Source: Arcobacteraceae bacterium
GTDB lineage: Bacteria; Campylobacterota; Campylobacteria; Campylobacterales; Arcobacteraceae
DNA length: 64,000 nucleotides
Direction: 5' to 3'
Assembly (NCBI GenBank): GCA_963662945.1
Contig: OY759974.1
Span: 2,208,001 to 2,272,000 of the forward strand
Made by a program: the position numbers and the translations under genes. The notes below the pieces were generated by a model. The model was not told the origin of the DNA and made no database searches. It saw nothing but the letters and a program-made list of their open reading frames with translations. Positions 47,851 through 64,000 of the stretch are shown here, piece by piece (the first letter of the stretch is position 1; every line of letters starts with the position of its first letter).

Positions 47851-48864
47851 ATGGAAAATTTAAAACAACTATTACACAAAATGCTCATCATTGGTTTTGA
47901 TGGGCAAGATATTTCTAATAATGAGACACTAAAAACTCAGATAAAAAATGGTTTAGGTGGAGTGATTTTATTTGATCATTATATCAATGATAAAACAAAA
48001 AGTAAAAATATCTCGACTCCAGAACAACTGAAAAAACTCAACTTTACACTTCAAAGTATTAGTAGTCATCCCTTAATGATTTGTATTGATCAAGAGGGTG
48101 GAAAAGTTGCAAGGTTAAGAGAGCAAAAGGGATTTAAAGAAACAGAATCTGCAAAAACGATTGCATCTTTTTCAGATAGTGAAGCAAAAGAAGCGTATGA
48201 GAGTTTAGCTTTACAGTTATCGCAACTTGGAATTAACTGTGATTTTGCTCCATTAGTTGATTTAGGAATCAATAAAGACTCTAAAATAATCTATGGACTT
48301 GATAGGGCTTATGGAGAAGATACACAAACTGTAGTTAAGTATGCAGAGATTTTTATAGATGCACTTACAAAACATCACGTCATCAATGTTTTGAAACATT
48401 TTCCTGGTCATGGGAGTGCTAAAGGAGATTCTCATGAAGGATTTGTAGATATTACAAAAACTTGGGATGAGTGTGAGCTTTATCCTTATAAAAAATTACT
48501 TCACAAAACCAATATGATTATGAGTGCCCATGTTTATAATGCTAAATTGGATGAAAAATATCCCTCTACACTCTCATATGCTACAAATACTAAACTTTTA
48601 AGAGAACAGTTGGGATATGATGGAGTATTAATTACTGATGATTTGCAAATGTTAGCAATTAAAGAGCATTATAAAAAAGAAGAGGCGATTGAACTTGCTA
48701 TAAACTCAGGCGCAGATATGCTAATGTATTGTAATCAATTAGGCAATGATGATACTAATGAAACTATTGAGATGATGGAATATTTAGTAAAAAGTGGCAA
48801 AATCTCAGAAGAGAGAATACGAGAAGCAAATAGAAGAATAGATAAACTACGACAAGGTATCTAA
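47851..48864 (+). CDS. nagZ: GH3 beta-N-acetylhexosaminidase
   Basis: IDQEGGKVARL, KHFPGHG....DSH and ITDDL.M motifs. Confidence 0.92.
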   Translation: MENLKQLLHKMLIIGFDGQDISNNETLKTQIKNGLGGVILFDHYINDKTKSKNISTPEQLKKLNFTLQSISSHPLMICIDQEGGKVARLREQKGFKETESAKTIASFSDSEAKEAYESLALQLSQLGINCDFAPLVDLGINKDSKIIYGLDRAYGEDTQTVVKYAEIFIDALTKHHVINVLKHFPGHGSAKGDSHEGFVDITKTWDECELYPYKKLLHKTNMIMSAHVYNAKLDEKYPSTLSYATNTKLLREQLGYDGVLITDDLQMLAIKEHYKKEEAIELAINSGADMLMYCNQLGNDDTNETIEMMEYLVKSGKISEERIREANRRIDKLRQGI

Positions 48865-50348
48865 TGCAAGCAGGGTTTTCTTCTATTGATTGGGCGATTT
48901 TTATTGGTTATTTAAGTGTATTACTTGTTACTGCACGTTACCTTGCAAATGCCAATATCACCTCTTCAAGGGAGTTTTTTACTGCAAAAAATTCTATGAT
49001 GGCTTGGACGGTTGCATTATCCTTACTTGCTACTGCCCAATCTGCTGCTACTTTTTTAGGAGCACCTGAATTTTCTTATAGATTTGATTTAACACTTCTT
49101 GGCTACTCTGTTACATCATTACTTGCAATTTATATCGTGGTAAAAGTTTTGATTCCACGACTTTATGCGATGAATGCTGTGAGTGTATATGAACTACTTC
49201 AGGAACGATATGGTGAAAATGCTAGACGAGATGTAGGGATTATGTTCTTAGTAGGAAGATTGTTTGCCAGTGGTGCAAGACTTTACATGGCTGCACTTGC
49301 TTTAAGTATGATACTTTTTTATGATATTAGCTTAGTTCATGTGAGTTTATCTGTAGTGTTACTTGTGATAGGGGCTTTAATTTTTACCTATTTTGGAGGG
49401 ATTAGGTCTGTTATTATTAGTGATATATTACAGATTATTGTTTATTTAGGTGCTGGAATTGCAGTGGCTGTATATTTGTATCTATCAATATCAATGGATT
49501 TTTCGACAATTTATCAAACTTTGAGTGAAGTAGAAAAATTAAAATATATAGATTTTGAACTTAGCTTTACCAATGAGGGGAAATTTAATATGTTTGCACT
49601 TCTTACAGGATATATGCTTTTAAATATTGCAGCCTTTGGACTAGATCAAGACTTAGCTCAAAGGGTACTATCTTGTAAAAATAAAAAAGAGGCTGGATGG
49701 TCACTTTATGGTGCTACACTTTTAAGTATACCAGTATCTATGCTTTTTCTAACTATCGGATTATTACTTTTTTTATACTATCAAGAGCATACAATCAATC
49801 AAAAATTTGCAGGGGAGAGCATCACTATTTTTATGTATTATATTTTAAATGAGATGCCAAATGGTTTAAAAGGTTTTGTAACCATTGGTGCAATTGCAGC
49901 AGCACTTAGTAGTACAAATTCAGTTTTAGGGGCAATGAGTAGCGTAGCTATTGAAGATATTTATAGGCCACATAAAAATAAAAACAGTGTAACAGTAGAT
50001 GAACAACATTTTGTAAAAGTTGCTAAAAGTTTGGTATTGGTTTTTGCCGTAGCATTAGCACTCATGGCGATTGTAAGTTTTATTGTTCATAGCCATAGTA
50101 ACATTCCTCTTATTAGTTTTGCTTTAGGGGTAATGGCATATGCTTATAGTGGATTGCTTGGTGTCTTTGGTAGTGCAATCTTTACTAATCGTGGTAATTC
50201 TAAACTCATCCCTTATGCTCTTATAGTTGGTTTTATAAGTGTTTTTTCGATGCAAGGTTATACTTTTGGTTTAAATATAGGATTTTCATGGCAGTTAGTG
50301 ATAGGAACTGCACTTTCATTTGGAGTGATGCAACTTGGAAAAAAGTAA
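48864..50348 (+). CDS. Sodium:solute symporter
   Basis: SLLATAQSAATFLGAP, GG..SVI.SD..Q, DQDLAQR motifs; multi-TM. Confidence 0.9.
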   Translation: MQAGFSSIDWAIFIGYLSVLLVTARYLANANITSSREFFTAKNSMMAWTVALSLLATAQSAATFLGAPEFSYRFDLTLLGYSVTSLLAIYIVVKVLIPRLYAMNAVSVYELLQERYGENARRDVGIMFLVGRLFASGARLYMAALALSMILFYDISLVHVSLSVVLLVIGALIFTYFGGIRSVIISDILQIIVYLGAGIAVAVYLYLSISMDFSTIYQTLSEVEKLKYIDFELSFTNEGKFNMFALLTGYMLLNIAAFGLDQDLAQRVLSCKNKKEAGWSLYGATLLSIPVSMLFLTIGLLLFLYYQEHTINQKFAGESITIFMYYILNEMPNGLKGFVTIGAIAAALSSTNSVLGAMSSVAIEDIYRPHKNKNSVTVDEQHFVKVAKSLVLVFAVALALMAIVSFIVHSHSNIPLISFALGVMAYAYSGLLGVFGSAIFTNRGNSKLIPYALIVGFISVFSMQGYTFGLNIGFSWQLVIGTALSFGVMQLGKK

Positions 50349-51426
50349 TCTATTTATTGGGGTAATGAGTGGTACAAGCCTTGATGGTATCGATATAGCT
50401 TTATGCTCTATTTGTGAAAATAAAATTGAAACTTTAAGTGCAAAAGAATACAGCTATGATACAAATATAAAAGAAGATGTATTAAACGCTATTGCAAACA
50501 AAGTTTCACTTGAAACTATTGGTACACTACACCATAGATTAGCAGTTATGTATGCTAAAGCGTTAGAAGAATTTTTAACTGAATTTCATATTGATTCTAA
50601 AGATATTGTGGCAATTGGTCTGCATGGTCAAACTCTTTGGCACGCTCCAAATATCCCCTACCCTTTTTCACTGCAATTAGGGGATGGCTCATTGGTAGCA
50701 AAGAGGTTACAAATTGATGTTGTAAATGATTTTAGAAGTGGTGATATAGCAAATGGTGGACAAGGAGCTCCTTTAACTCCTGCTTTTCATAAGGCTTTAT
50801 TTGATGATAAAAATACTGCTGTACTAAATCTTGGAGGTATTGCAAATATCACTATTTTAAGTGATGATTTTATAGGTTTTGATGTGGGGGTAGCTAATAT
50901 CTTATGCGATTATTGGATAGGAAAGCATCAAAATAAGCTTTTTGATAAAGATGGAGTATGGGCAAGTGAAGGGAAAGTACATAAGGAGCTTTTAGATTTA
51001 CTTCTTAGTGATCCATATTTTAAACAACTACCACCTAAAAGTACAGGGCGTGAATATTTTAATGCTGCATGGTTAGAAAAACAACTAGAATCATTTAGTA
51101 CCATAAGTGCCGTTGATGTTCAAGCAACTTTAATAGAATTTACGGTTCAACCTATTATAGAAGCTTTAAAAAACTACAAAATTAATAGATTGATTGTATG
51201 TGGCGGTGGAGCACACAATAGTTTTCTAATGAAAAAACTTTCACAAAACTTAGACAAAGTGGCAGTTTTAAAAAGTGACGACATAGGAATTAATAGCACT
51301 TTTTTAGAAGCAATAGCTTTTGCATGGTTAGCATATAAAAGAATGAATCATCAAGCTATTGATTTACAAACAATTACAGGGGCAAATAAACCATCAATTC
51401 TAGGAGCAATACATGCAAAAGATTAA
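50335..51426 (+). CDS. anmK: Anhydro-N-acetylmuramic acid kinase
   Basis: GVMSGTSLDGID, HGQT, DFR..D...GGQGAPL, PKSTGRE, EAIAFAWLA motifs. Confidence 0.96.
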   Translation: MEKSNLFIGVMSGTSLDGIDIALCSICENKIETLSAKEYSYDTNIKEDVLNAIANKVSLETIGTLHHRLAVMYAKALEEFLTEFHIDSKDIVAIGLHGQTLWHAPNIPYPFSLQLGDGSLVAKRLQIDVVNDFRSGDIANGGQGAPLTPAFHKALFDDKNTAVLNLGGIANITILSDDFIGFDVGVANILCDYWIGKHQNKLFDKDGVWASEGKVHKELLDLLLSDPYFKQLPPKSTGREYFNAAWLEKQLESFSTISAVDVQATLIEFTVQPIIEALKNYKINRLIVCGGGAHNSFLMKKLSQNLDKVAVLKSDDIGINSTFLEAIAFAWLAYKRMNHQAIDLQTITGANKPSILGAIHAKD

Positions 51427-52351
51427 AGAATTTTTAGAAGGTACTCCTTATGCGGATTTTACCATTGAAGTTGCTTCAAGTGATGCAAGTTTTAGACGAT
51501 ATTTTAGATTGTACAAAGGAGATGAAACTTTAGTCCTTATGGATTCATCTTTAGAAAAAACATCGCTAGAGCCTTTTATAAATGTTACTAATCGTTTGCA
51601 AAGTGCAAATCTTCATGCTCCAAAAATTTTTCATGAAGATAGAGAAAAAGGGTTTTTAATTATAGAAGATCTTGGAGTAAAAAATCTTCTTGATGCTCTA
51701 AGTCAAGATAATTTTAAGTCTCTTTATAAAAAGTGTATTGATGAGATTATCACTATGCAAAAAGTTGATGCAACTGCATTGCCTCTTTATGATGAGGCTT
51801 TTTTAAAGCTAGAGATGAACTTAATGCCAGAGTGGTTTTTAAACAAATATTTAGAGCAAAATTTAAATGAACAAGAGATTGCCATCATAGAAAATACTAT
51901 TGATTTGGTTGCAAAAAAAGTGCTTTCTCATCCTCAAGAATGTTTTGTTCATCGTGATTTTCACTCAAGAAATATTATGCACTGTGAACCACTTGGAATT
52001 ATAGATTACCAAGATGCTATGAATGGTTCTATTGTTTATGATTTAGTTTCACTACTCAAAGATTTATATATCCAGTTTGATCCACAAGATATGGCTGAGT
52101 TAGCACTTTATTTTAAAGAGCAAAAAAAACTACAAGTAAGTGATGAAGAGTTTTTAGAGTGGTTTGATTTTATGGGACTACAGCGTCATTTAAAAGTACT
52201 TGGTATTTTTGCGAGATTATACTTACGAGATAATAAAGATGGGTATTTAAAAGACCTACCTCTTACTTTAGATTATGTACTACAAGTGTGTAAAAAATAC
52301 TCTGAACTTGACGCCTTACATCAATTACTCTCTAAAGTAACATTACCATGA
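51413..52351 (+). CDS. amgK: MurNAc/GlcNAc anomeric kinase (APH-fold phosphotransferase)
   Basis: SDASFRRYFR, HRDFHSRN, IDYQDA, QRHLKVLGIFARL..RD.K..Y motifs. Confidence 0.9.
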   Translation: MQKIKEFLEGTPYADFTIEVASSDASFRRYFRLYKGDETLVLMDSSLEKTSLEPFINVTNRLQSANLHAPKIFHEDREKGFLIIEDLGVKNLLDALSQDNFKSLYKKCIDEIITMQKVDATALPLYDEAFLKLEMNLMPEWFLNKYLEQNLNEQEIAIIENTIDLVAKKVLSHPQECFVHRDFHSRNIMHCEPLGIIDYQDAMNGSIVYDLVSLLKDLYIQFDPQDMAELALYFKEQKKLQVSDEEFLEWFDFMGLQRHLKVLGIFARLYLRDNKDGYLKDLPLTLDYVLQVCKKYSELDALHQLLSKVTLP

Positions 52352-52977
52352 TAGCTATGATACTTGCTGCTGGACGAGGGGAGAGGATGCGACCCCTTAC
52401 CGATAATACCCCAAAACCCTTGCTTGAAGTTAAAGGGAAACCACTTATAGTGTGGCATATAGAAAAGCTAGTAGATAAAGGGTTTAAAACTATTATTATA
52501 AATATTGACCATTTAGGTGAGCAGATACTACAAAGTTTAGGTGATGGCTCAATTTGGGGCATTAAAATCATCTATAGTGATGAGAGAGAAACTGGTGCTT
52601 TAGAAACAGCTGGGGCTATTATCAAAGCATTACCCTTTTTAAGTGAAATATTTTTAGTAGTAAATGGTGATATTTGGTGTGATTATGATTTTCAATTAGA
52701 TTTTCATTTGGATAATAAGTTGGCACATCTTGTCTTAGTGCCAAATCCAGAACATAATCCAAATGGGGATTTTCAATACTTAGAATCATATTATACATTT
52801 AGTGGTATTGGTTATTATAGTAAAAAGATTTTTGAAAATTTAAGTGCAGGTAAACGTCCACTAGCTCCAATTTTAAAAGAGTTAATTAGTGAAGAAAAAA
52901 TCAGCTTTGAACTTCATAGTGGAGTTTGGAGTGATATAGGAACACCAGAGCGTTTAAATGAGGTGAATGCTCTGTAA
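52348..52977 (+). CDS. murU: MurNAc-alpha-1-phosphate uridylyltransferase
   Basis: AMILAAGRGERMRPLTD..PKPL, LETAG, NPEHNP.GDF, W.DIGTPERL; directly follows amgK. Confidence 0.9.
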   Translation: MIAMILAAGRGERMRPLTDNTPKPLLEVKGKPLIVWHIEKLVDKGFKTIIINIDHLGEQILQSLGDGSIWGIKIIYSDERETGALETAGAIIKALPFLSEIFLVVNGDIWCDYDFQLDFHLDNKLAHLVLVPNPEHNPNGDFQYLESYYTFSGIGYYSKKIFENLSAGKRPLAPILKELISEEKISFELHSGVWSDIGTPERLNEVNAL

Positions 52978-53781
52978 ATATTTAGCTACCGCATCTTCAT
53001 TATTACTAAACTCAGAAACAAAAGTAGCAAGTTCTTTTAACTCTTTGTGTGCATTGGCAACAGCAACTGATGTATGAGCTAGTTTAAACATCCCAACATC
53101 ATTAAGATTGTCTCCAAAAACAGTAAACTCTTTATAGTCTATCTGTGTTATTTCATGAACTTTTTGTAAGCCATGTGCCTTATCTGCATCTTTATGCAGA
53201 AGCGTTAAAAAATAACATCCAAGATACGCTTCTGGTGCTAAGATATATTTTATCTCATCTTTAAAAATAGATTGTAAGTTATCTTGTAACTCCTCTAATT
53301 GTTCTTTTTCTCCAAAATAAACTAGTTTAAAATTATCCTTCATTGCTTTTATATTAGAACACTCTTGAAGATTATCATCACCTTTATATCTTTTTAAAAG
53401 CTCTTTTTGATGGCTATTTGTTTGAGTTGGATATAAAAAAGCCTCATTAAGATGTTGGTCTTTTAATGCTAAAACAAAAGGATAAATACCAAGCTTTACC
53501 CCACACTCTATAATCTCATTACCCATCTCATTTGATAAAGTTTTCATATCTAAAATCTTTTTTTCAGGTGAAATAATAAGTGAACCATCAAGTAAAATCA
53601 TAGGGGTATTTATGTGAAGACCTTGTAAAAATTGTTCACTTTTTTTATATGTTCTTGCTGTTGCAATACCCATAATATGATTTTGTGCCATAGTATTCCA
53701 TGTTGTTTTACTATGGTCGCTTATAGTAAGATCATTACGTAAAAAAGTATGATCAAGGTCTGTTAAAAAAAGTTTGGACAT
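52954..53781 (-). CDS. Cof-type HAD-IIB hydrolase
   Basis: TDLDHT, ATAR, K, FGDNLND motifs. Confidence 0.9.
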   Translation of the reverse strand: MSKLFLTDLDHTFLRNDLTISDHSKTTWNTMAQNHIMGIATARTYKKSEQFLQGLHINTPMILLDGSLIISPEKKILDMKTLSNEMGNEIIECGVKLGIYPFVLALKDQHLNEAFLYPTQTNSHQKELLKRYKGDDNLQECSNIKAMKDNFKLVYFGEKEQLEELQDNLQSIFKDEIKYILAPEAYLGCYFLTLLHKDADKAHGLQKVHEITQIDYKEFTVFGDNLNDVGMFKLAHTSVAVANAHKELKELATFVSEFSNNEDAVAKYLQSIHLI

Positions 53782-53814
53782 TCGTAGCCTTTAAGTATTT
53801 TTTAGTCAAGATTA

Positions 53815-55332
53815 TTAAAAAGCCCAGTGGTCTCTTTTATTTCTCCATGGGCTGTATGGCTTGTTCCAATAGCTTGGGAGTTCTTGCCCATCATTTATAT
53901 TTTGATAATACTCTTTTTCATGAGCTTTTATCTCTTCTCTGATTTTACTTACATATTGTTTTTGTTCATTTTCATCAATTTTACTTTGAGGAAGAGTCGC
54001 TTCTAATAATTCTTCTTCAAATTTTGCTAAATTAAAATTTTTATTTAAAAATTTAGTAATATTAATAACATCTCTTTTTGCATTTCCTAAACAGCTCGTT
54101 GCACCAGGTGAAGGGGTCATATTAAATACTATTCCATCTCCAGTGTTTATAGATGCTTCCCCCAACATTAGTTTTCCCTCTGTTTTATTTAGAACCTGTG
54201 GTCGTACACCACCAAAACCATCTGCATATCGTATATCATCTGTTTTGAGTGATGGGATGATTTTTCTTGCATTTTTTACAAAAAGTTTTTTATTGATATA
54301 TGGTATTTCAAATAAAAAGTTTCTAAAGATATAGTTTCGTATATCACTATCTTTTAAAAGGTCGTAGAATATTTTGATAATTTTTTTATCAAATCGAAGT
54401 GTTGTCCAAAAATCTTTGTATGTTCCACTTTTATATCTTTCTAACTTTGGTAATACAAGGGCCGTTGGTCCAAATCGTGTAAGTCCATCTTCTAAAATAT
54501 CTGGATCTCCATGTAAGGCCGCAAATGGAAGTTTTGGATTTTGTACCATATACACTTTTCCATTAAGAATTTTTTGGTTTGTCATATAGAAGCTTCCTGC
54601 AACTGGTAGACAACTATATTCAAGTCCATATCCCATTTTATGTGCTAAAAATAGTGAATGAGCACCGGCATTTACTACAACAAAATCAGCTTCATAGGTT
54701 TCATTTGCTGTTTTTACTTTGTAAGTATCATTTTCTTTTTGGATATCTAAAACTTGTGAATTTACAAATAAATCTACAGTTTTCCCATCCTCTTTTTGTG
54801 CATTTTCTATCAAACTTACAGACATTTTTTTATAATCTACTGTAGTCCACTCTCCAATGGAACCCACTCCAACAATTGTTTCTGGTCGCTCTTTTCCATT
54901 TTCATCAAATATAAGTTTTGGTTCTATAGTTTTAAGATGCTCTTTATCCCATACTTGAAGATTTGGGAAAAGTTCTTTGAACTCTTCATATCTTTCAAGC
55001 ATAAATTCAACCTCTTTATCTCCTACACCCAAAGCCATTTTTTGATGAGAGAAGATAACTTCATTTTCTAGCTTGTGTTGCAGACAATATTTTTCAACCA
55101 TTTTGGCTGTTTGTTTAGTAATTGAAGCTTTTGCAAGAGTATAGTTTGTTTCAATATCCCCAAAATGGATAGTTTGAGAGTTTGCTTTTCCTGAACTATT
55201 AAGGGTAGAAACCCCTTCATACTTTTCTAAAATACAAATAGATTTTATATCTGTATATCTTGCCAATTCATACGCTAAAGCAGCTCCTGAAATACCTGCA
55301 CCTACAATTACAACTTCATACTTTTTACCCAC
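53815..55332 (-). CDS. mqo: Malate:quinone oxidoreductase (Campylobacterota type)
   Basis: GAGISG, NSQTIH.GDIETNY, NPKLPFAALHGD, FNMTPSPGATSCL motifs. Confidence 0.9.
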   Translation of the reverse strand: MGKKYEVVIVGAGISGAALAYELARYTDIKSICILEKYEGVSTLNSSGKANSQTIHFGDIETNYTLAKASITKQTAKMVEKYCLQHKLENEVIFSHQKMALGVGDKEVEFMLERYEEFKELFPNLQVWDKEHLKTIEPKLIFDENGKERPETIVGVGSIGEWTTVDYKKMSVSLIENAQKEDGKTVDLFVNSQVLDIQKENDTYKVKTANETYEADFVVVNAGAHSLFLAHKMGYGLEYSCLPVAGSFYMTNQKILNGKVYMVQNPKLPFAALHGDPDILEDGLTRFGPTALVLPKLERYKSGTYKDFWTTLRFDKKIIKIFYDLLKDSDIRNYIFRNFLFEIPYINKKLFVKNARKIIPSLKTDDIRYADGFGGVRPQVLNKTEGKLMLGEASINTGDGIVFNMTPSPGATSCLGNAKRDVINITKFLNKNFNLAKFEEELLEATLPQSKIDENEQKQYVSKIREEIKAHEKEYYQNINDGQELPSYWNKPYSPWRNKRDHWAF

Positions 55333-55378
55333 AATTACACCTTATTTAGTTAATAGAGATATTGTATCTAAAATTCAA

Positions 55379-56095
55379 TTATGATAGTAAATTGGAAGCG
55401 AGTTTTTCCAACCCTTTTTTTTGTAAGATGTGTAAATTGCTCATTTGTGTATATTCAAAAGTTTTTTCTTTGTAATATTCTAAGATTATTTTATCAATTT
55501 GTTCTTTTTGAGAGATGATAGTTTCTAGAAAACTTTTCATCTCACTTGTTTCAAACTCATCAAAATTTTGAAGTTTTAAAAAAAGTGCTTCTAAAAGCTC
55601 TTCATTTATGAAGTTTTGTGCTTTGTTTAGAAATTTTGTGGCTTCTGCTTCTACAGCGTAAATTTCATCATTCCATTTTCTTCCGTGTATTAGTTGGTCT
55701 ACTGCAACATCAATGAAAACAGGGACAATATCTAAAACTTGATTGAGTTCTGTAAAATCATTATCAACCAAATCCCGAAATAACATTCGTGTTCTATTGC
55801 GTATTTTTTTTCGTAATTCTTCATTTTCTATAACTTGTGGATTAAGTATTTTAAATCGTTCCAATGCTCCTAATCGTGAGTGATTAAATGCCATAATAGA
55901 AACAAGTGGATGAGGGTCTTTGATTTGGTCTGGATGGGAACCAGATGGTCTACAAAATGCCCAGTAGAGTCTTGCTTCCATATCTTTATGGTTTATATAT
56001 TTTTTATCTCCAAGTGCTTCAAAGTTCTCTTCATCTTTAAGTGCTTCCACTTCCTCTTTATAGGTTAAATTGAATAACTCTTCCATAACTTTCAA
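55379..56095 (-). CDS. Hypothetical helical protein overlapping the vWA gene
   Basis: 238-aa ORF whose start overlaps the end of 56058-57284; no family recognised. Confidence 0.75.
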   Translation of the reverse strand: MKVMEELFNLTYKEEVEALKDEENFEALGDKKYINHKDMEARLYWAFCRPSGSHPDQIKDPHPLVSIMAFNHSRLGALERFKILNPQVIENEELRKKIRNRTRMLFRDLVDNDFTELNQVLDIVPVFIDVAVDQLIHGRKWNDEIYAVEAEATKFLNKAQNFINEELLEALFLKLQNFDEFETSEMKSFLETIISQKEQIDKIILEYYKEKTFEYTQMSNLHILQKKGLEKLASNLLS

Positions 56096-57284
56096 ACTTT
56101 GTTAAATTTTTTTTATCACTTATGATAAAGAGGGTTTTTGACACTAATGGATGGGTAATATCAAATTCTCCATCACTTAAAACCATCAAAAGGTTCTCAC
56201 TTCGTATATCTGTATTTTTAAGATATCGTAATACTTCGTTGAAGTTTGTACCTCCATCACTTTTAGGAATATATAAATCTTTCTCTTGCAAAGGATTAAA
56301 ACTATCAAAACTAATGATATGGTCACTTTTTACAAACCTGTCAAAAGGCAAAATTGTTACTTTGTATTCATAAAATCCTTCACATATATCTTGAATGATA
56401 CCTAGAAATTTTTTATACTCTTCAAGTGTAACAGAACTACTACTATCTAAAGCTATATAAACCTCAATAAGCTCATCACTTTTTTTTGTCCCTGGTAGAT
56501 AAAGTCCAGTATGTATATATCTTTTATTTGGTCTAGAAAATGTTGTTTGCTTTTCAAATAAAGATGCTGTAAGATACTCTTTAAGTACATCTTGTAAATT
56601 AATATCAGGACGAATAAGTGTATCTATTTCTATTTGAAGTCCACCATATTTATGTGAAGTTTTTTTTGCAATAGTGAGTGCTTGTATAATAATACCATCT
56701 AGTTTTTCTTGGTCACCTTGAGAAGTTTTTTCATCTGGAACTTCTTCTAAGTCTAATTTTGAATTATCATAGATGTAAGCATTTTTATCCCCATCTGGAT
56801 CAGGTGCTACTTTTGCCTCACTGCTTTGTTCTTCATCACTATTTGAGTCTTGATTTTGTTCCTCTTCCTCTTTTTGATAGAGTATCTCATAGACCTCTTC
56901 AACACATTTATCTTTTAAGTCCAAGTCAAGTATCTCATCAGTTGGTTTTATTCCAACATTTTCAAAGGTATCAAGAATATTATTGATAACCAAATCACAC
57001 GCTTGATTCCAGATATACATATCTCTTGTTTTTTGTCGATAGGGATGTTTTAGGACAATATGAAGAAGGGTGTGTGCATAAAGGTAAGTGATATTTTCAT
57101 CACTATATTTTTCTAACTTTTCTAAATCAATAGTTATTTTTGCCCCATTTGTTTGAAAAGCACTATTTGTATTTTGTTCAAAAGTTGTAGGGATTGATAA
57201 TGCAAGGACTGATAAAAAAGGGTGGTTAAATAAAAAATTTACCCTTAATTTTGCAAATAATTCTTCATAATTTTTATCAGTCAT
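56058..57284 (-). CDS. DUF2201 putative metallopeptidase plus vWA-like domain protein
   Basis: TNG, AHTLLHIVLKH..R, WN.ACD..IN, acidic linker, MIDAS DSSSS, GGTNF and SDG. Confidence 0.85.
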   Translation of the reverse strand: MTDKNYEELFAKLRVNFLFNHPFLSVLALSIPTTFEQNTNSAFQTNGAKITIDLEKLEKYSDENITYLYAHTLLHIVLKHPYRQKTRDMYIWNQACDLVINNILDTFENVGIKPTDEILDLDLKDKCVEEVYEILYQKEEEEQNQDSNSDEEQSSEAKVAPDPDGDKNAYIYDNSKLDLEEVPDEKTSQGDQEKLDGIIIQALTIAKKTSHKYGGLQIEIDTLIRPDINLQDVLKEYLTASLFEKQTTFSRPNKRYIHTGLYLPGTKKSDELIEVYIALDSSSSVTLEEYKKFLGIIQDICEGFYEYKVTILPFDRFVKSDHIISFDSFNPLQEKDLYIPKSDGGTNFNEVLRYLKNTDIRSENLLMVLSDGEFDITHPLVSKTLFIISDKKNLTKFESYGRVIQFNL

Positions 57285-57315
57285 AGTATCACTTTTATTG
57301 GTTTACTTTATAGTA

Positions 57316-57331
57316 TGCAATAAATGTGCCG
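57316..57331 (-). promoter_or_regulatory. Putative sigma54 (-24/-12) promoter for the vWA gene
   Basis: Minus strand reads CGGCACATTTATTGCA, with GG-N10-GC spacing. Confidence 0.5.
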
Positions 57332-57341
57332 ACTATAAAGT

Positions 57342-59888
57342 TTAAGAAAGTAAATCCATTAATTCCTCATTTTTATTAAATTCCGCATAATCATATGCTC
57401 TCTTATTCTGAATAGTATAATAATCTATATTTGCACCTTTTCCCAATAATCTTTTTACTAAATATGTATCATTAATTTCCGTTGCAAAAACTAAAGGTGT
57501 AAATCCATTTCTTTCTCTAATATCAACATTGACTAAATTATCTAACAATAAATCAAAAATTTTATAATAATTGTCTTTTTTTTGTTTATAGCTAAAATTG
57601 TGAAATTCTTTTCTAAAAAATTTTTGAAACTCTTTTTTATCTAGACCTACATTATCAAAATCTAAAGTTATCTCATTGTCAAAAATATTATTGATTAGTG
57701 GATTAGCTTTAATGATTTTACTTAATTCTTCTTTTGATGAAGATACACTTCTCGATGCATATTCTAAAAAATTTGAATAATCTTCTGAATTTAAATTTGA
57801 TAATCTTATGAGTTGAATACAATAATATAAATATGAAACTTCATCCAAAGTACATTTCTCATTTAAATCTACATTATTATCAAGAAGTAGTTTAACAATA
57901 TTTACAAAACCTTTTTCAATGGCATAGGACATTGCAGTCTCTTTCTTTTTTACTAATTTGGCATTCAGTGCTTCTATAGACATTTTAGGAATTAACAGTT
58001 CCATTATCTCTATTTGTTTTTCTGTAGTATGATAAGTGCTTCCAAAAGAATATATTAATGCAGTACAGTTATCATTTAGTTTTTGTTCATTTACATCTAC
58101 ATTAGCCTTTAAAAGTTTTTTAACATCATCTATTTTAGATAATTGACAACAATGCATAAGTTGAGTAATTTTGTTAGGTAAGCCTTTTTTTATCCATTTG
58201 TTAGGATTATCAAAATCAATTTTTATATTTTCCAAATCTTTTGTATTTACTGCTGCAAAATTAGAAGAAATAAAAAGATTAGATGATTCTTTAGACCCTG
58301 GAAATAAATTTTTAAAATAAATATCAAATTGTTTTTGCATATCTAAAAGAAAATGTTGATTAATTTTTTCTGGTAAACTTTCTAAAAGTTTGTAAAAGTA
58401 TGCTTGGTTATAAAATTTTCTAAAAGGACTACTTGCTTTATCTAAGTCAATCTGTACATTTCTTGTACTTTGTGATGAAACGAATAAACCTTCTCTAATA
58501 ATATCTTTCATATTTATACCAACAACATTTTTACCATATTTAAGTGCTTCTAAATAATATTCAGTAGATTTCTTATATTCTCTTTTTTGTGCATAAAATC
58601 TAGCTTTCATAAATAGACAATAGGGATTGTATTCAATATCAAACCTCTCTTCTACTTCTTTTAAAGCTTTAAAAAATTTAGATTCTGTATGTTCATCTTT
58701 TTTATTAGTAGGTGCAACACATTCATATAATTTTGAAGTAAGTTGTGCGTATTCAAAAAATGTTTTATCTATATCCTTTTCATCTATACTTATAACAGTA
58801 GATAAATCAAAATCTTTATAAAAAAAGTCGATAGGTAAAAATGAGCTAATTTTAGCGATAAATGACTCTTCTTCCATTTTATACAATATATCAAATTTAT
58901 TTCTATTATTTAAAATATATTCTTGCATCTCTTTTGCTTTATTAGAAGAATCACTATTTTTAACAAAATAGTCTAACATATAGAATAAATCAAAATTATT
59001 GTAATAATATTGTTGTAGATACAATTCTAATAAGTCAGATTCTTTTGTTTGCAGGTTTTGTTTAAACATTTCAAGTTTATTAGTTATCTCTAAATAACTA
59101 AGCATTGTAATTGTTTTATAATGTTTAACTAATAAGTTTGTTAGTTCAGTACCAAAATATTCTTTTGATTTTGAATATAGGTATTGAATAATTTTGGCAA
59201 TTTTAAATAATGTATTTAAATCAATTTCAGAAAATTTATTTGAAAACTTTGCTAATCGTGAAAGTATATTGATATGTTCTCGATTAGGAAGATTTTTACC
59301 ATTAATCCAATTATTATAATCCTCTTTTTTTAAATTATAGTCTTTGTAATTATCATCTAAAATTTTATATATTTCATCTTTTAAACTAATATTTTCTTCA
59401 AAAGTAGATTCTAGTAGCTTAAAAAGTTTTTGTATAGAATTTTCTTTTTCATCTGGCAAAATCGAATCTATCAAAGTTAATTCTCTTTTTTGTTTTAATA
59501 ATCTATCAAAGACTAAATGACTTAAAAAAGGAATAAATAAATTAATTGCAATTAGAAAATCTAATTGTTTTTGGGATGTAGCTAATGTTTCATTATGAAG
59601 TTTATAAAGATTATAAAATGAAAGAAATTCATTTATTAGCTTTTCATAATATTCATACTCTTTATTATTTGAACTATTAAAAAAAGTATATAAAACATCT
59701 TCAATAATTTTATTTTGAGTATCAAAATATTCTTGTGCAGATATTTCATCTTCTTTTATAAATCTCTGATAAGTTTTTGTATCATCTTTTTGATATATAT
59801 CTAAGCTCTTAATTAAAAAGTCTAATATAAAACCATTAGTTCTATGTTTTGAAAATTCTATTCTTATTTTTTGCACTCTCTTGTCCAA
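57342..59888 (-). CDS. Large ankyrin-repeat protein with TPR-like and Xre-HTH-like segments; possibly interrupted at codon 11
   Basis: Ankyrin repeats (ETAMSYAIEKGFVNIVKLLLDNNVDLN; GFTPLVFATEINDTYLVKRLLGKGANID), TPR-like KARFYAQKREYKKSTEYYLEAL and HTH-like NNWINGKNLP. Confidence 0.85.
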   Translation of the reverse strand: MDKRVQKIRIEFSKHRTNGFILDFLIKSLDIYQKDDTKTYQRFIKEDEISAQEYFDTQNKIIEDVLYTFFNSSNNKEYEYYEKLINEFLSFYNLYKLHNETLATSQKQLDFLIAINLFIPFLSHLVFDRLLKQKRELTLIDSILPDEKENSIQKLFKLLESTFEENISLKDEIYKILDDNYKDYNLKKEDYNNWINGKNLPNREHINILSRLAKFSNKFSEIDLNTLFKIAKIIQYLYSKSKEYFGTELTNLLVKHYKTITMLSYLEITNKLEMFKQNLQTKESDLLELYLQQYYYNNFDLFYMLDYFVKNSDSSNKAKEMQEYILNNRNKFDILYKMEEESFIAKISSFLPIDFFYKDFDLSTVISIDEKDIDKTFFEYAQLTSKLYECVAPTNKKDEHTESKFFKALKEVEERFDIEYNPYCLFMKARFYAQKREYKKSTEYYLEALKYGKNVVGINMKDIIREGLFVSSQSTRNVQIDLDKASSPFRKFYNQAYFYKLLESLPEKINQHFLLDMQKQFDIYFKNLFPGSKESSNLFISSNFAAVNTKDLENIKIDFDNPNKWIKKGLPNKITQLMHCCQLSKIDDVKKLLKANVDVNEQKLNDNCTALIYSFGSTYHTTEKQIEIMELLIPKMSIEALNAKLVKKKETAMSYAIEKGFVNIVKLLLDNNVDLNEKCTLDEVSYLYYCIQLIRLSNLNSEDYSNFLEYASRSVSSSKEELSKIIKANPLINNIFDNEITLDFDNVGLDKKEFQKFFRKEFHNFSYKQKKDNYYKIFDLLLDNLVNVDIRERNGFTPLVFATEINDTYLVKRLLGKGANIDYYTIQNKRAYDYAEFNKNEELMDLLS

Positions 59889-59952
59889 TCAATTTTCTAT
59901 ATTAAATTTTGCATAAATCATAAAATTCCTCAAATACAATAAAGGAGTGAAG

Positions 59953-60786
59953 ATGAATGAAATAACAGTTAATTGGCACATTATACAAAAGTGTAACTAT
60001 AAATGTTATTACTGTTTTGCAAAATATGATAATTATGAAAAAAAAGAAGTTCATAATTCAAAAAAAGAAATCGAAGGTCTATTAAGAAAAGTTTATCAAT
60101 CTTTCAAAAAAGAGTTTAAAGATCATAGTATCAGATTAAATATTGCTGGAGGTGAACCAACATTATCTAAAAATTTAGATTTTATTATTAAATCTGCATA
60201 TAAAATTGGATTCAATATATCTATAATAACTAATTCTTCAGTTTTAACAACAAGATTTATAAGTGAAAATGCAAAACATATATCTATGTTTGCAATAAGT
60301 ATTGATAGTTTAAATAAAAATACAAATTTAAAAATCGGAAGAATAAGTAATAAAAACTTTTTAGAAATTTATCAGGTTTTAAAAAATATCAGTCTTTTAA
60401 GAAAATATAACCGTTCTATTAAAATTAAAATCAATACAGTAGTCAATAACTATAATTATTCGGAGTATATAGGTGATTTTATTAGTCTTGTAAAACCTGA
60501 CAAATGGAAAGTATTTCAAGCATTAAGTATTAATAGTAATGAAGAATATTGTTCAAAAGAGCAATTTAAAACCTTTATATACAATCACAAGAACTTGAAT
60601 ATTAATACATTTTCTGAAACAAATGATGAGATGATAGATTCATATATTATGATAGACCCTTATGGAAGATTTTATCAAAATAGCGGGGTAATATATCAAT
60701 ATTCTAAATCCATACTTGAATTAGAATCAGATGAAATTATAAATCATGTTAAATTTGATTTAAAAAAATATAAAAATAGATATTAG
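59953..60786 (+). CDS. Prokaryotic viperin (antiviral radical SAM ddhNTP synthase)
   Basis: VNWHI...CNYKCYYCF, RLNIAGGEP, ITN.S, ISIDS, KINTVV, WKVFQ, M.DSYIMIDP.GRFYQN; AAGGAG RBS before ATG 59953. Confidence 0.9.
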   Translation: MNEITVNWHIIQKCNYKCYYCFAKYDNYEKKEVHNSKKEIEGLLRKVYQSFKKEFKDHSIRLNIAGGEPTLSKNLDFIIKSAYKIGFNISIITNSSVLTTRFISENAKHISMFAISIDSLNKNTNLKIGRISNKNFLEIYQVLKNISLLRKYNRSIKIKINTVVNNYNYSEYIGDFISLVKPDKWKVFQALSINSNEEYCSKEQFKTFIYNHKNLNINTFSETNDEMIDSYIMIDPYGRFYQNSGVIYQYSKSILELESDEIINHVKFDLKKYKNRY

Positions 60787-60795
60787 GAGTTAGAA

Positions 60796-61485
60796 ATGAA
60801 AGACGAAAAAATAGCAGTATTTTTTGACTGTGAGAATATATCAGCTAGTTATGTAGATTCAATTTTTGGTGAATTAGCAAAATATGGAGATGTGATTATA
60901 AAACAATCTTTTAAAGATTGGGGAAATTCTAACAATAAATCATGGAATAGAGAGCTACATGAAGAGTTTGCCATTGAGGCTATTCAAGTTTTTTCTGCAA
61001 GAGGTGCTAAAAATAGTTGTGATATGAGGATTCAAAGAGCTATAAATGAAACAATTAATCATAAAAAAATAGATATTATTGTTTTAGTATCGAGTGATAG
61101 TGACTTTAGAGATTTAATCATAAATGTTAAAGCTAATGGTTTTAAAACTATTGGCTTTGGAGAATCAAAGACTTCATTATCTTTAAAAAGTGCATATTCC
61201 ACTTTTATAGAACTTCCTATAAAAGAACATTATGAAAAAAAGAATGATAAAGAAGTAATTAAATTATTAAAAGAAGCTATACAAAAAACAATTAAGGAAG
61301 GTGACTATTCTTTAGTTTCTCAAATGGGTAACTACTTAAAAAATAAAAATTCTTCATATAATCCAAAAAACTTAGGTGCTACTACTTGGGGAAATATAAT
61401 TAAAAAATTTCCTAATTACTTTGAATGGAGTCATCTAGATAAAGAGAAAAGTCAGATGATTGTAAAGTTAAAAAAAATATTTTAG
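60796..61485 (+). CDS. NYN (LabA/DUF88, PIN-like) nuclease with C-terminal LOTUS/OST-HTH domain
   Basis: FFDCENI, KNSCD, LVSSDSDF, IGFG, then SQMGNYL......NPKNLG. Confidence 0.9.
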   Translation: MKDEKIAVFFDCENISASYVDSIFGELAKYGDVIIKQSFKDWGNSNNKSWNRELHEEFAIEAIQVFSARGAKNSCDMRIQRAINETINHKKIDIIVLVSSDSDFRDLIINVKANGFKTIGFGESKTSLSLKSAYSTFIELPIKEHYEKKNDKEVIKLLKEAIQKTIKEGDYSLVSQMGNYLKNKNSSYNPKNLGATTWGNIIKKFPNYFEWSHLDKEKSQMIVKLKKIF

Positions 61486-61489
61486 TACT

Positions 61490-61530
61490 AAATAGGGGAT
61501 AATATATTAAATAATATACTCCCCATATTT
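61490..61530. terminator. Imperfect hairpin between the convergent NYN and AAA genes
   Basis: AAATAGGGGA...TCCCCATATTT. Confidence 0.4.
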
Positions 61531-62514
61531 CTCCAACCACTCCTCAAATTCTTCTAATTCCGCTATTGCCTCATCTTTGATAATCAAATCTTTTATTAAC
61601 ATTACAGAAAATTCTACTGGAAGTCCTTTTGAATATGCAAAAAGGTTTTTTGCTTGATTTGTATTGTTATATTTTTCAATAAGTGCAGCAGTTAGAGCAT
61701 AAAGACTACTTGGTTCTGTTGGTACATCAGAAGAAAGCCCCTCTAAAATAGCATCTATATCAGGCAAGGTTTTATACACTTTTACAAATGAGGTAAACTC
61801 AATTCCTGCTCCATATCCAACAGTTCCGTATACTATTGGAGAGATTTTACCAATCTCATTTGTATTTTTTAATATGTTAGATAACATAGCCCAAGCTCTT
61901 GGTGTACAAAATGCTGGATTAGTTTCACTTGAACTAGGAACTTCGCTACTTAGTAAATCTGGGCGAAATCCTAAAAAACCTATGATAAAAGGATGAATTT
62001 CATTTTTGATAGCCCAAGCTTTAAAGTCATCAAACTTTGCTTCTAAAACTATATGTACCATTCTATTTATAAGTGGACTTGGAAGTTTAAAAACAATCCC
62101 TTTGTCATCTATTTTATTCCCTGCACATACAATTGCCCAATTTTTCGGCATAGTATATTCACCTATTTTTCTATCAAGTACAAGTTGATAAATTGCAGCT
62201 TGTACTGAAAGTGGAGCAGAGTTTAATTCATCTAAAAAAAGTATCCCAGAAGAGTCTTCATCACTTGGTAAAAATACTGGTGGCATCCATATTGTTTGAT
62301 TATTTTGTATAGTTGGAATACCTCGTAAATCTACAGCATCAAGTTGAGAAAGTCGTACATCTATTATCTCTAGGTCATTTTTCTTTGCTATATCATTGAC
62401 TATATATGATTTTCCAATCCCTGGACTTCCGTGTATAAATACTGGTGTATCTGTTTGAAGTAAGATATCAAGTTGATTGTATAGTTCAGCAGTTCCAATT
62501 GCAGGTGTTATCAT
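61507..62514 (-). CDS. MoxR-like AAA+ ATPase of the type associated with DUF2201/vWA genes
   Basis: Walker A GSPGIGKS, DLRGIP, Walker B LFLDE, AGN, PL.NR and TPRAW. Confidence 0.9.
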   Translation of the reverse strand: MITPAIGTAELYNQLDILLQTDTPVFIHGSPGIGKSYIVNDIAKKNDLEIIDVRLSQLDAVDLRGIPTIQNNQTIWMPPVFLPSDEDSSGILFLDELNSAPLSVQAAIYQLVLDRKIGEYTMPKNWAIVCAGNKIDDKGIVFKLPSPLINRMVHIVLEAKFDDFKAWAIKNEIHPFIIGFLGFRPDLLSSEVPSSSETNPAFCTPRAWAMLSNILKNTNEIGKISPIVYGTVGYGAGIEFTSFVKVYKTLPDIDAILEGLSSDVPTEPSSLYALTAALIEKYNNTNQAKNLFAYSKGLPVEFSVMLIKDLIIKDEAIAELEEFEEWLEKYGEYII

Positions 62515-62608
62515 AATAGGCTATCCTTGGTATAATTTGGATAATACTTTGCATATTTTATACCACCTAGCTACTACTAAATAAAAAGAAAAGCTTGAAA
62601 ATCTATAA

Positions 62609-63931
62609 TTAAATAATTTTCTTCGGACTAAATCTCCTAAATAAAATTATTGCTATTATAAAAGTAATAGCTTCAGCCATTGGAATCGCTAAAAATATCC
62701 CTTGTGTATCAAATAAATATGGTAATGTAAATATAAAAAATACAGGAAAAATAAAACTTCTTGATAATGCAATAATCATTGAGTATAAAGGCTTGTGAAT
62801 TGCTGTTAAATAAGCAGAAATTATAAGATTAATACCATTAAAAAGAAAAGCTATCCATATAAATGTTGCAAAGTCTAAAACTATTTTTTTTGTTTGATAA
62901 TTTGTATCTTCTAAAAAAATATTTGCTAAAGTATTGGGTACAAATAAGAGTAATAGTATCATTACAATACCAACCAAACTTGTAGTTATAAAAGCTAATT
63001 TTAAAAATTCTTCTATTCTTTTATTCTCTTTTGCACCAAAATTTTTACTAATAATTGGTTGTAAAGAGTCACTTATTCCAAAACTTATCATTATCCCAAT
63101 CATTAAAAGATAATTTATAACTGTAAATGCAGCTATTCCTTCTATACTGAAATTTTTTATCATTACATAGTTAAAAATTAAAGTTGTTATTCCTATTGAA
63201 ATTTCATTCACAAATTCGGAAGCTCCATTGTAAGTAGCTTTGATAATTTGTATATAACTTCCTATTGGTTTTACAAATTTGATTGTTGCTTTTTTTGAGA
63301 AAAAATGAGGTAAAAGAATAACCAATAAAGTAAGTTGAGAGATACCAGTAGCTAATGCTGCTCCAAAAATACCTTTTTGTAAATATACTATCATAAACCA
63401 ATCCAATAACACATTTATAATTGCACTTAAAAGTAGAGCTATAAAAGCAAGATTTGGTCTATTATCAACTCTTACAAAATAATCTAAAACTACTCCAATC
63501 ATCAAAAATGGAATAAAGATTAACATTATAGATAGATATTCAATTGCTATAATTGTCAAATTTTTATCTGCACCAAAAAGATGTAAGATAGTTTCTATAT
63601 TTAAAAATAGAACTATGCAAGTTAAAAAACTAAAAAGAGTGATGCAAAGCATAGTTTTGCTAAAAATAATAGAAGCGTTTTTAGTATCTCCTTCTCCTAT
63701 AAGTTTTCCAGATACAACACTACTCCCAATTGCTAACATTAAAGCAAATCCAAAAAGTAAAGAGAAAATAGGAAAACTTATATTTATAGCTGCAAGTCCA
63801 GAATCTCCAACATAATTTCCTATAAAAAATCCATCTACTATACTTGCTGATGAAATTGCCAACATTCCTAATACTGATGGTATTGAATATTGAAAAAAAA
63901 CAGATAATATTTTATCTTTTGTTACATTCAT
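62609..63931 (-). CDS. MATE family efflux transporter
   Basis: IVDGFFIGNYVG...LAAIN, N..LD...I.....GI.GAALAT and QPIIS.NFGA motifs; 12 TM. Confidence 0.93.
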   Translation of the reverse strand: MNVTKDKILSVFFQYSIPSVLGMLAISSASIVDGFFIGNYVGDSGLAAINISFPIFSLLFGFALMLAIGSSVVSGKLIGEGDTKNASIIFSKTMLCITLFSFLTCIVLFLNIETILHLFGADKNLTIIAIEYLSIMLIFIPFLMIGVVLDYFVRVDNRPNLAFIALLLSAIINVLLDWFMIVYLQKGIFGAALATGISQLTLLVILLPHFFSKKATIKFVKPIGSYIQIIKATYNGASEFVNEISIGITTLIFNYVMIKNFSIEGIAAFTVINYLLMIGIMISFGISDSLQPIISKNFGAKENKRIEEFLKLAFITTSLVGIVMILLLLFVPNTLANIFLEDTNYQTKKIVLDFATFIWIAFLFNGINLIISAYLTAIHKPLYSMIIALSRSFIFPVFFIFTLPYLFDTQGIFLAIPMAEAITFIIAIILFRRFSPKKII

Positions 63932-64000
63932 TTAATTTCTTTTAATTTTTTCTTTTGATCTAAATCACCTTTTATAAATACAGGTGATTATAGAAAGTTA

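Follow-up and report, generated by a model that had tools for sequence, protein, structure and literature searches.

Background

Viperin-family enzymes convert CTP, UTP or GTP to 3'-deoxy-3',4'-didehydro-nucleoside triphosphate (ddhNTP) chain terminators, and the motifs that define them are the CxxxCxxC cluster motif and the GGE motif that binds S-adenosylmethionine (SAM). Bernheim and colleagues reportedly described the prokaryotic viperin (pVip) in 2021 as a single-gene anti-phage system, and the pVips studied so far are said to act alone. Bacterial viperins have been treated as stand-alone enzymes, and the locus presented here offers a concrete, testable answer to the question of their control. 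It lies within a 64,000-nt stretch of DNA from an Arcobacteraceae bacterium (assembly GCA_963662945.1, contig OY759974.1, positions 2,208,001-2,272,000, forward strand), which was analysed as a whole and is hereafter called the window, and it comprises three genes, encoding a large partner protein with ankyrin repeats, a pVip and a nuclease with NYN and LOTUS domains. We lean towards reading this locus as a horizontally acquired ~ 4.2-kb anti-phage cassette in which a regulator or sensor with helix-turn-helix (HTH), tetratricopeptide repeat (TPR) and ankyrin modules gates the pair formed by pVip and a ribonuclease (RNase).

The closest described system is pVip itself (NCBIfam NF038283 and the PADLOC pVip models), with which the enzyme of the cassette shares the radical SAM CxxxCxxC character, a score over the curated cut-off and membership in the kinase-less class. 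The cassette differs in that three genes are inherited together, with a large HTH-TPR-ankyrin partner and an RNase in addition to pVip and with no nucleotide kinase. Kinases are the partners treated in a preprint on viperin evolution, where a kinase is found near 12% of bacterial viperins (10.1101/2023.09.13.557418). Moreover, gene pairs of pVip with HicA and of pVip with RelE have already been published (Gerdes 2024, mBio, PMC10865869, classes 9 and 10), and that article asks how the pVip-linked RNases are regulated and if they have a share in defence; the terms NYN, ankyrin and TPR do not occur in it. Sister cassettes of the one in the window likewise carry HicA beside pVip (G156, L004, L114 and L115; here and below, G numbers denote genomes and L numbers denote loci), whereas the window cassette carries NYN-LOTUS, which is a third, unrelated RNase fold among pVip partners and strengthens the idea that a chain terminator combined with an RNase is a general two-hit strategy. 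Thus, the adjacency of pVip and an RNase was known, and the new elements are NYN-LOTUS in the RNase role and the dedicated large partner protein.

The two partner proteins of pVip also have described relatives. The nuclease resembles LabA/NYN + OST-HTH proteins and eukaryotic MARF1, a proven endoribonuclease according to two articles (PMC6294520, PMC6217404), in that an NYN nuclease domain is joined to a probable LOTUS domain, but it is small, bacterial and has a single such domain. The large protein has in common with the RRNPP regulators (PlcR, PrgX, ComR, AimR) and with HigA/Xre proteins a putative Xre-like HTH followed by putative TPR, and its fold matches include HigA, PlcR, PrgX, ComR and entries of the arbitrium system. 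It differs in that its HTH is internal, behind a domain of 139 residues, in that it carries 276 residues of ankyrin repeats, and in having no family match at the sequence level; furthermore, no signalling-peptide gene was recognised at the locus, and the PlcR match (Z 7.5) has a root-mean-square deviation (rmsd) of 13.4. The large protein may work like an RRNPP regulator but is not a member of that group. A regulator gene placed head-to-head with an effector operon is also known for BrxR and for CapH of the cyclic-oligonucleotide-based anti-phage signalling system (CBASS), and the N-terminal domain of CapH (7t5u_A) was among the fold matches with a Z of 4.8; compared with both, the large protein is much larger and multi-domain, and it has neither a partner protease nor a WYL domain.

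A full-text search of the literature, with supplementary tables outside its reach, gave, among the papers listed, none on pVip with NYN or LOTUS and none on the large protein. This agrees with the initial annotation of the window, which had been made from the sequence and knew of no description of the trio as one system. That annotation had also referred to ankyrin genes noted beside some pVips; no such paper was found by the same search, again with supplementary tables outside it.

Results

Identity of the pVip gene and layout of the cassette

Judged by its sequence, the second gene of the cassette is a prokaryotic viperin. Its product matches NF038283 ('viperin family antiviral radical SAM protein') with 301.9 bits against a cut-off of 180, and its best PADLOC model is that of pVips 'not associated with kinases' (E = 1.1e-87), in line with the earlier remark that a nucleotide kinase is missing from the cassette. 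The nine best matches in the PDB are viperins or viperin-like enzymes with E-values of 2e-31 to 6e-27, the next match following at 8e-6, and MoaA models score at most 68 bits. The cysteine triad C16/C20/C23 lies in CNYKCYYC (nt 59992-60015), and the other motifs quoted in the initial annotation, NIAGGEP and SYIMIDPYGRFYQN, are likewise present in the translation. In a tree of 26 pVips, those linked to the large protein form one clade with support of 99/97, except for the long-branched copy of G379. The PADLOC run and the tree had been proposed as checks of the viperin assignment, and both place the enzyme where it had been put. No match to this pVip was found in 50,697 phage records.

All three genes are intact according to the list of open reading frames (ORFs; 57342-61485), and the ORF positions, the 9 nt between the pVip stop and the NYN-LOTUS start and the head-to-head arrangement with an 848-amino-acid ankyrin protein are exactly as first described. 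The large gene and pVip are divergent and stand 58 nt apart by the longest ORFs or 76 bp apart by the probable starts. The GTG at 59876 is the likely start of the large gene because the database copy of the protein (P0004) has 844 amino acids and a GGAGG-type site is present in relatives, and the ATG at 59953 is the likely start of pVip because AAGGAG precedes it.

Linkage of the three genes across genomes

Are the three genes a unit that is kept together, or chance neighbours in one genome? A pVip over the NF038283 cut-off is present in only 6 of 184 Arcobacteraceae genomes, and a search with residues 1-565 of the large protein gives strong matches in five genomes, all of them within those six, with the match adjoining pVip in each. 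Five of the 401 genomes of the order match the large protein at E <= 1e-8, one of which (G379) belongs to another family, and the radical SAM gene neighbouring the homologue in that genome also passes NF038283, with 247 bits. For the linkage count, seven genome loci and 13 metagenome loci with a large-protein homologue were pooled (n = 20). A pVip gene adjoins the homologue in 18 of these loci but not in L118, where an 87-amino-acid ORF and HicA are present without pVip, nor in L119, whose contig is too short to tell. Among the 18, pVip is followed by NYN-LOTUS in 11 loci and by HicA in the four sister cassettes named above, while the contig ends there in two loci and neither gene is found in one (G379). 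Sixteen of the 18 have the large gene head-to-head with pVip. L116 and L117 retain the trio in convergent order, at identities of 31-34% for the large protein, 46-47% for pVip and 37% for NYN, and overall, the cassette occurs in at least five different genomic contexts.

Genes for the large protein, for pVip and for an RNase thus move as one unit, in which the RNase is NYN-LOTUS or HicA. Since the genes travel together in many genomes, pVip is suggested to have its own dedicated controller; the linkage of pVip to the large partner, whose core has HicA and Thg1-like genes as further partners, survives deep divergence and gene rearrangement. The initial annotation had called for a survey of gene neighbourhoods and had proposed a module of sensor, viperin and RNase. 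With pVip adjoining in 18/20 loci and NYN-LOTUS next in 11/18, the co-occurrence of the trio elsewhere is borne out and the unit is conserved; the RNase slot of the proposed module is not fixed, however, because HicA replaces NYN-LOTUS in four loci.

Some loci show arrangements of their own. In G063 (L002:6020-11124), pVip is the fourth gene, after a PDC-S46-like SMC_N ATPase gene (PADLOC, E = 1.7e-202) and two genes of unknown family; it is followed by a frameshifted NYN remnant, and there is no large partner gene. In G379 (L101:9020-9633), the space between the large gene and its divergent, very diverged pVip holds two tiny ORFs (~ 29 and ~ 48 codons) with a high content of N, Q, K and G. 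In L118 (L118:348-3488), the ankyrin-bearing homologue has 841 amino acids and is divergent from the 87-amino-acid ORF, which belongs to no known family, and from a HicA gene of 79 amino acids; an AAA-like ATPase gene follows.

Domains and family of the large partner protein

The ankyrin repeats announced by the initial annotation are evident in Pfam searches, in which Ank_2 scores 68.9 bits against 27.3 (5.6e-19) and Ank scores 40.3 bits against 21.1 (2.9e-10). AlphaFold2 (AF2) models of residues 1-565 and 1-260 are all-helical, with a predicted local distance difference test (pLDDT) of 84-86 and a predicted template modelling score (pTM) of 0.84-0.85. In fold comparisons with VIA-align, residues 373-516 match TPR proteins (4gcn_B, Z 9.3, 124/127 residues, rmsd 3.3, a Z short of the caution level for helical repeats) and the STAND-TPR entry 6mfv_A (Z 8.9), and a weak Pfam TPR_2 signal of 14-15 bits against 27 is seen in 11 of 31 members of the family. 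The best matches of the N-terminal domain (residues 1-139) are TetR C-terminal-like, at Z <= 5.3.

Residues ~ 144-250 probably form an HTH, as suggested by model-based fold similarity to HigA. The best match, 3trb_B, has a Z of 7.7 with 86/92 residues aligned and an rmsd of 3.9, and other HigA entries follow with whole domains covered (2eby, Z 7.5; 6chv, HigA on DNA, Z 6.7; 2ict, Z 6.4). Roughly half of the 50 matches listed for this region are Xre-type, including CapH, ComR, PrgX and P22 c2. W194 and P201 are invariant in the family, and G197 is present in at least 90% of its members. Of the HTH-TPR-ankyrin architecture first proposed, the ankyrin part therefore stands by Pfam, and TPR and HTH stand as fold matches, whereas the HTH is internal rather than N-terminal and has no sequence-family match.

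The conserved domains show mean pairwise identities of 0.44-0.55, compared with 0.33 for the linker (residues 251-372) and 0.26 for the ankyrin insert (residues 691-770), so that variation peaks in these two; the TPR block ranks with the best-conserved parts, and the invariant residues of the family cluster at 422-493. The family itself is narrow: besides the cassette's own copy, there are 47 homologous clusters, those named by source all being from Campylobacterota, and 53 representatives were found at E <= 1e-3 among 1.84 billion proteins. Matches of the large protein to PADLOC PDC-M72A and NCBIfam MzaA cover the ankyrin repeats only and were rejected as repeat similarity.

Ankyrin-less paralogues and their cargo

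Five other Arcobacteraceae genomes contain paralogues of ~ 530 amino acids that lack ankyrin repeats and are 25-27% identical to the large protein over residues ~ 15-530. All five paralogue loci (L102, L103, L104, L105, which equals plasmid locus L120, and L106) have the paralogue head-to-head with a cargo gene, which belongs to the Thg1 family (3'-5' polymerase-like) in three loci and is HicA in two; in the latter, L103 and L106, no other ORF of at least 70 codons lies between paralogue and HicA. One Thg1-paired paralogue belongs to a named Aliarcobacter faecis megaplasmid, where its neighbours include integrase, recombinase and transposase genes. The nearest neighbours in the protein atlas are 16 clusters without names, with lengths of 523-543 amino acids. 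Thus, a shared core pairs repeatedly, and in the same geometry, with potentially toxic cargo directed at RNA or nucleotides, as is expected of a regulator or an antitoxin-like partner. A second copy of the 530-amino-acid paralogue in G068 (L104:7291-8876) consists of two overlapping pieces with an internal stop and is probably a pseudogene.

The NYN-LOTUS nuclease

The product of the third gene is predicted to be a nuclease of the NYN type (PIN-like, metal-dependent) whose acidic active site is intact and which carries a putative LOTUS domain for RNA binding. The NYN domain is recognised by Pfam (PF01936, 85.4 bits against a cut-off of 24.2). The OST-HTH/LOTUS domain (PF12872) scores 23.2 bits, slightly below the cut-off of 23.8; many NYN-LOTUS homologues have a precomputed PF12872 match, and the comparison of this region with PDB entry 2kzv is weak (E = 0.14). 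Because D11, N14, D76, D101 and D103 are invariant across 33 aligned NYN homologues, the nuclease site looks intact. The protein matched no PADLOC model. Among the NYN-LOTUS genes of L061-L075, some overlap or nearly abut upstream genes (FGE-sulfatase-like, rubrerythrin-like) and others are solitary, and Helicobacter pylori has NYN-LOTUS homologues of ~ 50% identity.

Insertion of the cassette into a host gene pair

The cassette was horizontally inserted between two host genes (Table 1). Homology in blastn comparisons ends at window position 57269 and restarts at 61511, and both positions correspond to one point in L049, which represents the empty site. In the close relatives G006 and G009, whose AAA_5 protein is 96% identical, the start of DUF2201 overlaps the end of AAA_5, and nothing lies between them. 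Both host ORFs stay intact in the window because the stretch of host-gene overlap is present, in diverged form, on both sides of the insert. The same insert is found at the same site in G013, another close relative, at 89-97% protein identity. No integrase or transposase was detected within the insert.

The GC content is 0.21-0.26 in eight 500-nt segments over 57500-61499, compared with 0.29-0.35 over 48000-56999 and 0.32-0.33 over 61500-62499 (about 31% in the flanks), and the greater AT-richness of the block relative to its flanks had been perceived correctly, although the region of the MatE transporter gene further right (62500-63999) is likewise low, at 0.25. The cassette is therefore not the only low-GC DNA here. 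The MoxR/DUF2201 flanks were considered as parts of the system and rejected, because in G006 and G009 the pair stands uninterrupted and the cassette is missing. Three further species of the genus have a gene for a 4HBT thioesterase of 138 amino acids at this MoxR/DUF2201 junction, on the opposite strand (L051:6664-7080, L052:7530-7946 and L056:6649-7065); therefore, this junction varies between species.

Table 1 Features of the three-gene cassette and its flanks (positions in the window)
Feature	Position	Strand	Basis or remark
Large partner protein gene	57342..59888	-	Longest ORF, 848 amino acids; probable start GTG 59876, 844 amino acids
N-terminal helical domain, residues 1-139	59472..59888	-	AF2 pLDDT 84-86; no clear fold match
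Probable HigA/Xre-type HTH, residues ~144-250	59139..59459	-	Fold similarity (VIA-align)
Variable helical linker, residues 251-372	58773..59138	-	Mean pairwise identity 0.33
Probable TPR domain, residues 373-516	58341..58772	-	Fold match; mean pairwise identity 0.54
Ankyrin-repeat domain, residues 573-848, variable insert 691-770	57345..58172	-	Pfam Ank_2, Ank
Divergent intergenic region, putative back-to-back promoters and operator	59877..59952	.	76 bp, from probable starts
Prokaryotic viperin (pVip), radical SAM	59947..60786	+	Longest ORF 279 amino acids; probable start ATG 59953
NYN-LOTUS nuclease gene	60796..61485	+	229 amino acids; NYN residues 5-140, LOTUS/OST-HTH residues 149-210
Inserted low-GC islet carrying the three genes	57270..61510	.	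~4.24 kb; blastn against empty site
Host DUF2201 (metallopeptidase-like + VWA-like), left flank	56058..57284	-	Pfam
Host MoxR-like AAA_5 ATPase, right flank	61507..62514	-	Pfam

Discussion

From homology and gene linkage, we infer that the large protein is the regulator or sensor of the cassette. Its HigA/Xre-like HTH would bind the 76-bp divergent promoter region and keep pVip and the RNase, and the large gene itself, off or low, until the TPR and ankyrin modules bind an infection cue and release follows. The released pVip would then poison phage transcription, and the released RNase would destroy phage transcripts, or all transcripts. If this reading is true, it would provide a bacterial parallel to the inducible expression of viperin in animals.

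Several results weigh against such a regulator. The Z values of the HTH region are of a size that helical folds can reach through a similar arrangement alone; none of the 31 family members matches any Pfam HTH at E <= 1, the HTH_3 model did not find the large protein in a search of the genome, and Foldseek gave no match to the PDB at E <= 1e-3 for either AF2 model. When 27 HTH_3 domains from relatives were compared by hhalign, P was 0.005-0.009 for the best of seven slices, with a probability of 4-7%, at the register expected of an HTH (recognition helix, G-x-x-x-P turn, next helix). A repeat search of the 76-bp intergenic region gave no convincing operator or palindrome, and since the large gene is not divergent in L116 and L117, a shared promoter is not obligatory. 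Moreover, 15 Arcobacteraceae genomes that lack pVip contain NYN-LOTUS homologues of 39-52% identity, among varied neighbours (L061-L075); therefore, the nuclease can work outside a pVip system. Eight of the ten neighbouring genes tested at other loci had no PADLOC match, which gives little sign of defence neighbours there.

The fact that HigA antitoxins are the best fold matches of residues 144-250 could point to a different role, in which the large protein binds and neutralises the RNase (NYN-LOTUS or HicA) in the style of HigA and is freed or degraded on infection, its autoregulation being secondary. The pairing of ~ 530-amino-acid paralogues with HicA in L103 and L106, the ankyrin homologue of L118 with its 87-amino-acid ORF and HicA in place of pVip, and the lack of an evident antitoxin for pVip-linked HicA and RelE in the Gerdes article (PMC10865869) would all fit. 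Neither the Thg1-like cargo nor pVip is a classical toxin, however, and the large protein is far bigger than any known antitoxin, and we consider this role plausible but rather doubtful.

The points raised above against the HTH also favour, by their nature, a protein that does not bind DNA but acts as a sensor or scaffold. Its TPR and ankyrin repeats would detect a phage protein and act directly on pVip, the RNase or both by activating or localising them. Both kinds of repeat are protein-binding modules, the trio is kept in L116 and L117 despite its convergent order, and variation is greatest in the linker and the ankyrin insert, a pattern to be expected where a surface takes part in an arms race. 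The head-to-head arrangement in 16/18 pVip-linked and 5/5 paralogue loci instead fits shared promoter control, the pVips studied so far are said to need no partner, and a scaffold of this kind appears unlikely to us.

It could also be argued that independent genes, or pVip and two passengers, merely share a mobile islet without a joint function, given the many genomes with NYN-LOTUS and no pVip and the case of G063, where pVip occurs without the large gene, near the PDC-S46-like gene and with a decayed NYN remnant. Such hitch-hiking is very unlikely when the linkage persists down to 31-47% identity, through a rearrangement of gene order and across at least five contexts, when strong homologues of the large protein adjoin pVip in 18/20 loci, and when pVip and NYN are 9 nt apart. 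A role outside defence, for example in the synthesis of modified nucleotides or the control of host RNA turnover, would suit an islet outside any recognisable defence island but is hardly credible for a pVip that passes an equivalog-level viperin model, a sporadic distribution (6/184 genomes), a foreign composition with insertion into a host operon, and alternative partners that are RNases of the toxin-antitoxin type.

Returning to the large protein as a regulator, we put forward only tentatively the broader idea that HTH-TPR(-ankyrin) proteins form a so far undescribed Campylobacterota family of modular gatekeepers that respond to infection, with one core wired head-to-head to swappable cargo. 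The cargo would be pVip with NYN-LOTUS, pVip with HicA, HicA alone or a Thg1-like 3'-5' polymerase, and the Thg1-like protein may then be an undescribed defence effector. If the idea is true, the pVips of this clade would be induced effectors, like the interferon-induced viperin of animals, and the coupled RNase would clear or exploit chain-terminated transcripts.

Intergenic region and transcription signals

Two short non-coding blocks are conserved in the window, G013, G136 and G092, at 65% protein identity. A scan for promoters and terminators yielded 45 promoter-like sites against 38.5 expected and is uninformative because the DNA is AT-rich. The hairpin after the NYN stop (z -1.66; 13/200 shuffles fold equally well) and the 10-bp hairpin after the stop of the large gene (z -2.9; 2/200 shuffles as good) both have no clear U-run.

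A 10-codon ORF with its own GAGGA site lies at 59889-59925 on the minus strand, its TGA directly preceding the TTG of the large ORF. Its length and last five residues are kept in G013, G136 and G092 but not in G156 and L004, and it could represent a leader peptide or no more than conserved promoter DNA. The possibility that it is part of the large gene, by read-through of the TGA that follows 10 codons after an in-frame ATG or as a leader, was rejected because the GTG behind a Shine-Dalgarno-like sequence is the likelier start and because the small ORF is not kept in G156 or L004. On the other side of the large gene, DUF2201, which the insert has separated from AAA_5, now lies 57 nt downstream on the same strand (57285-57341 between), and this host gene may now be transcribed from the cassette.

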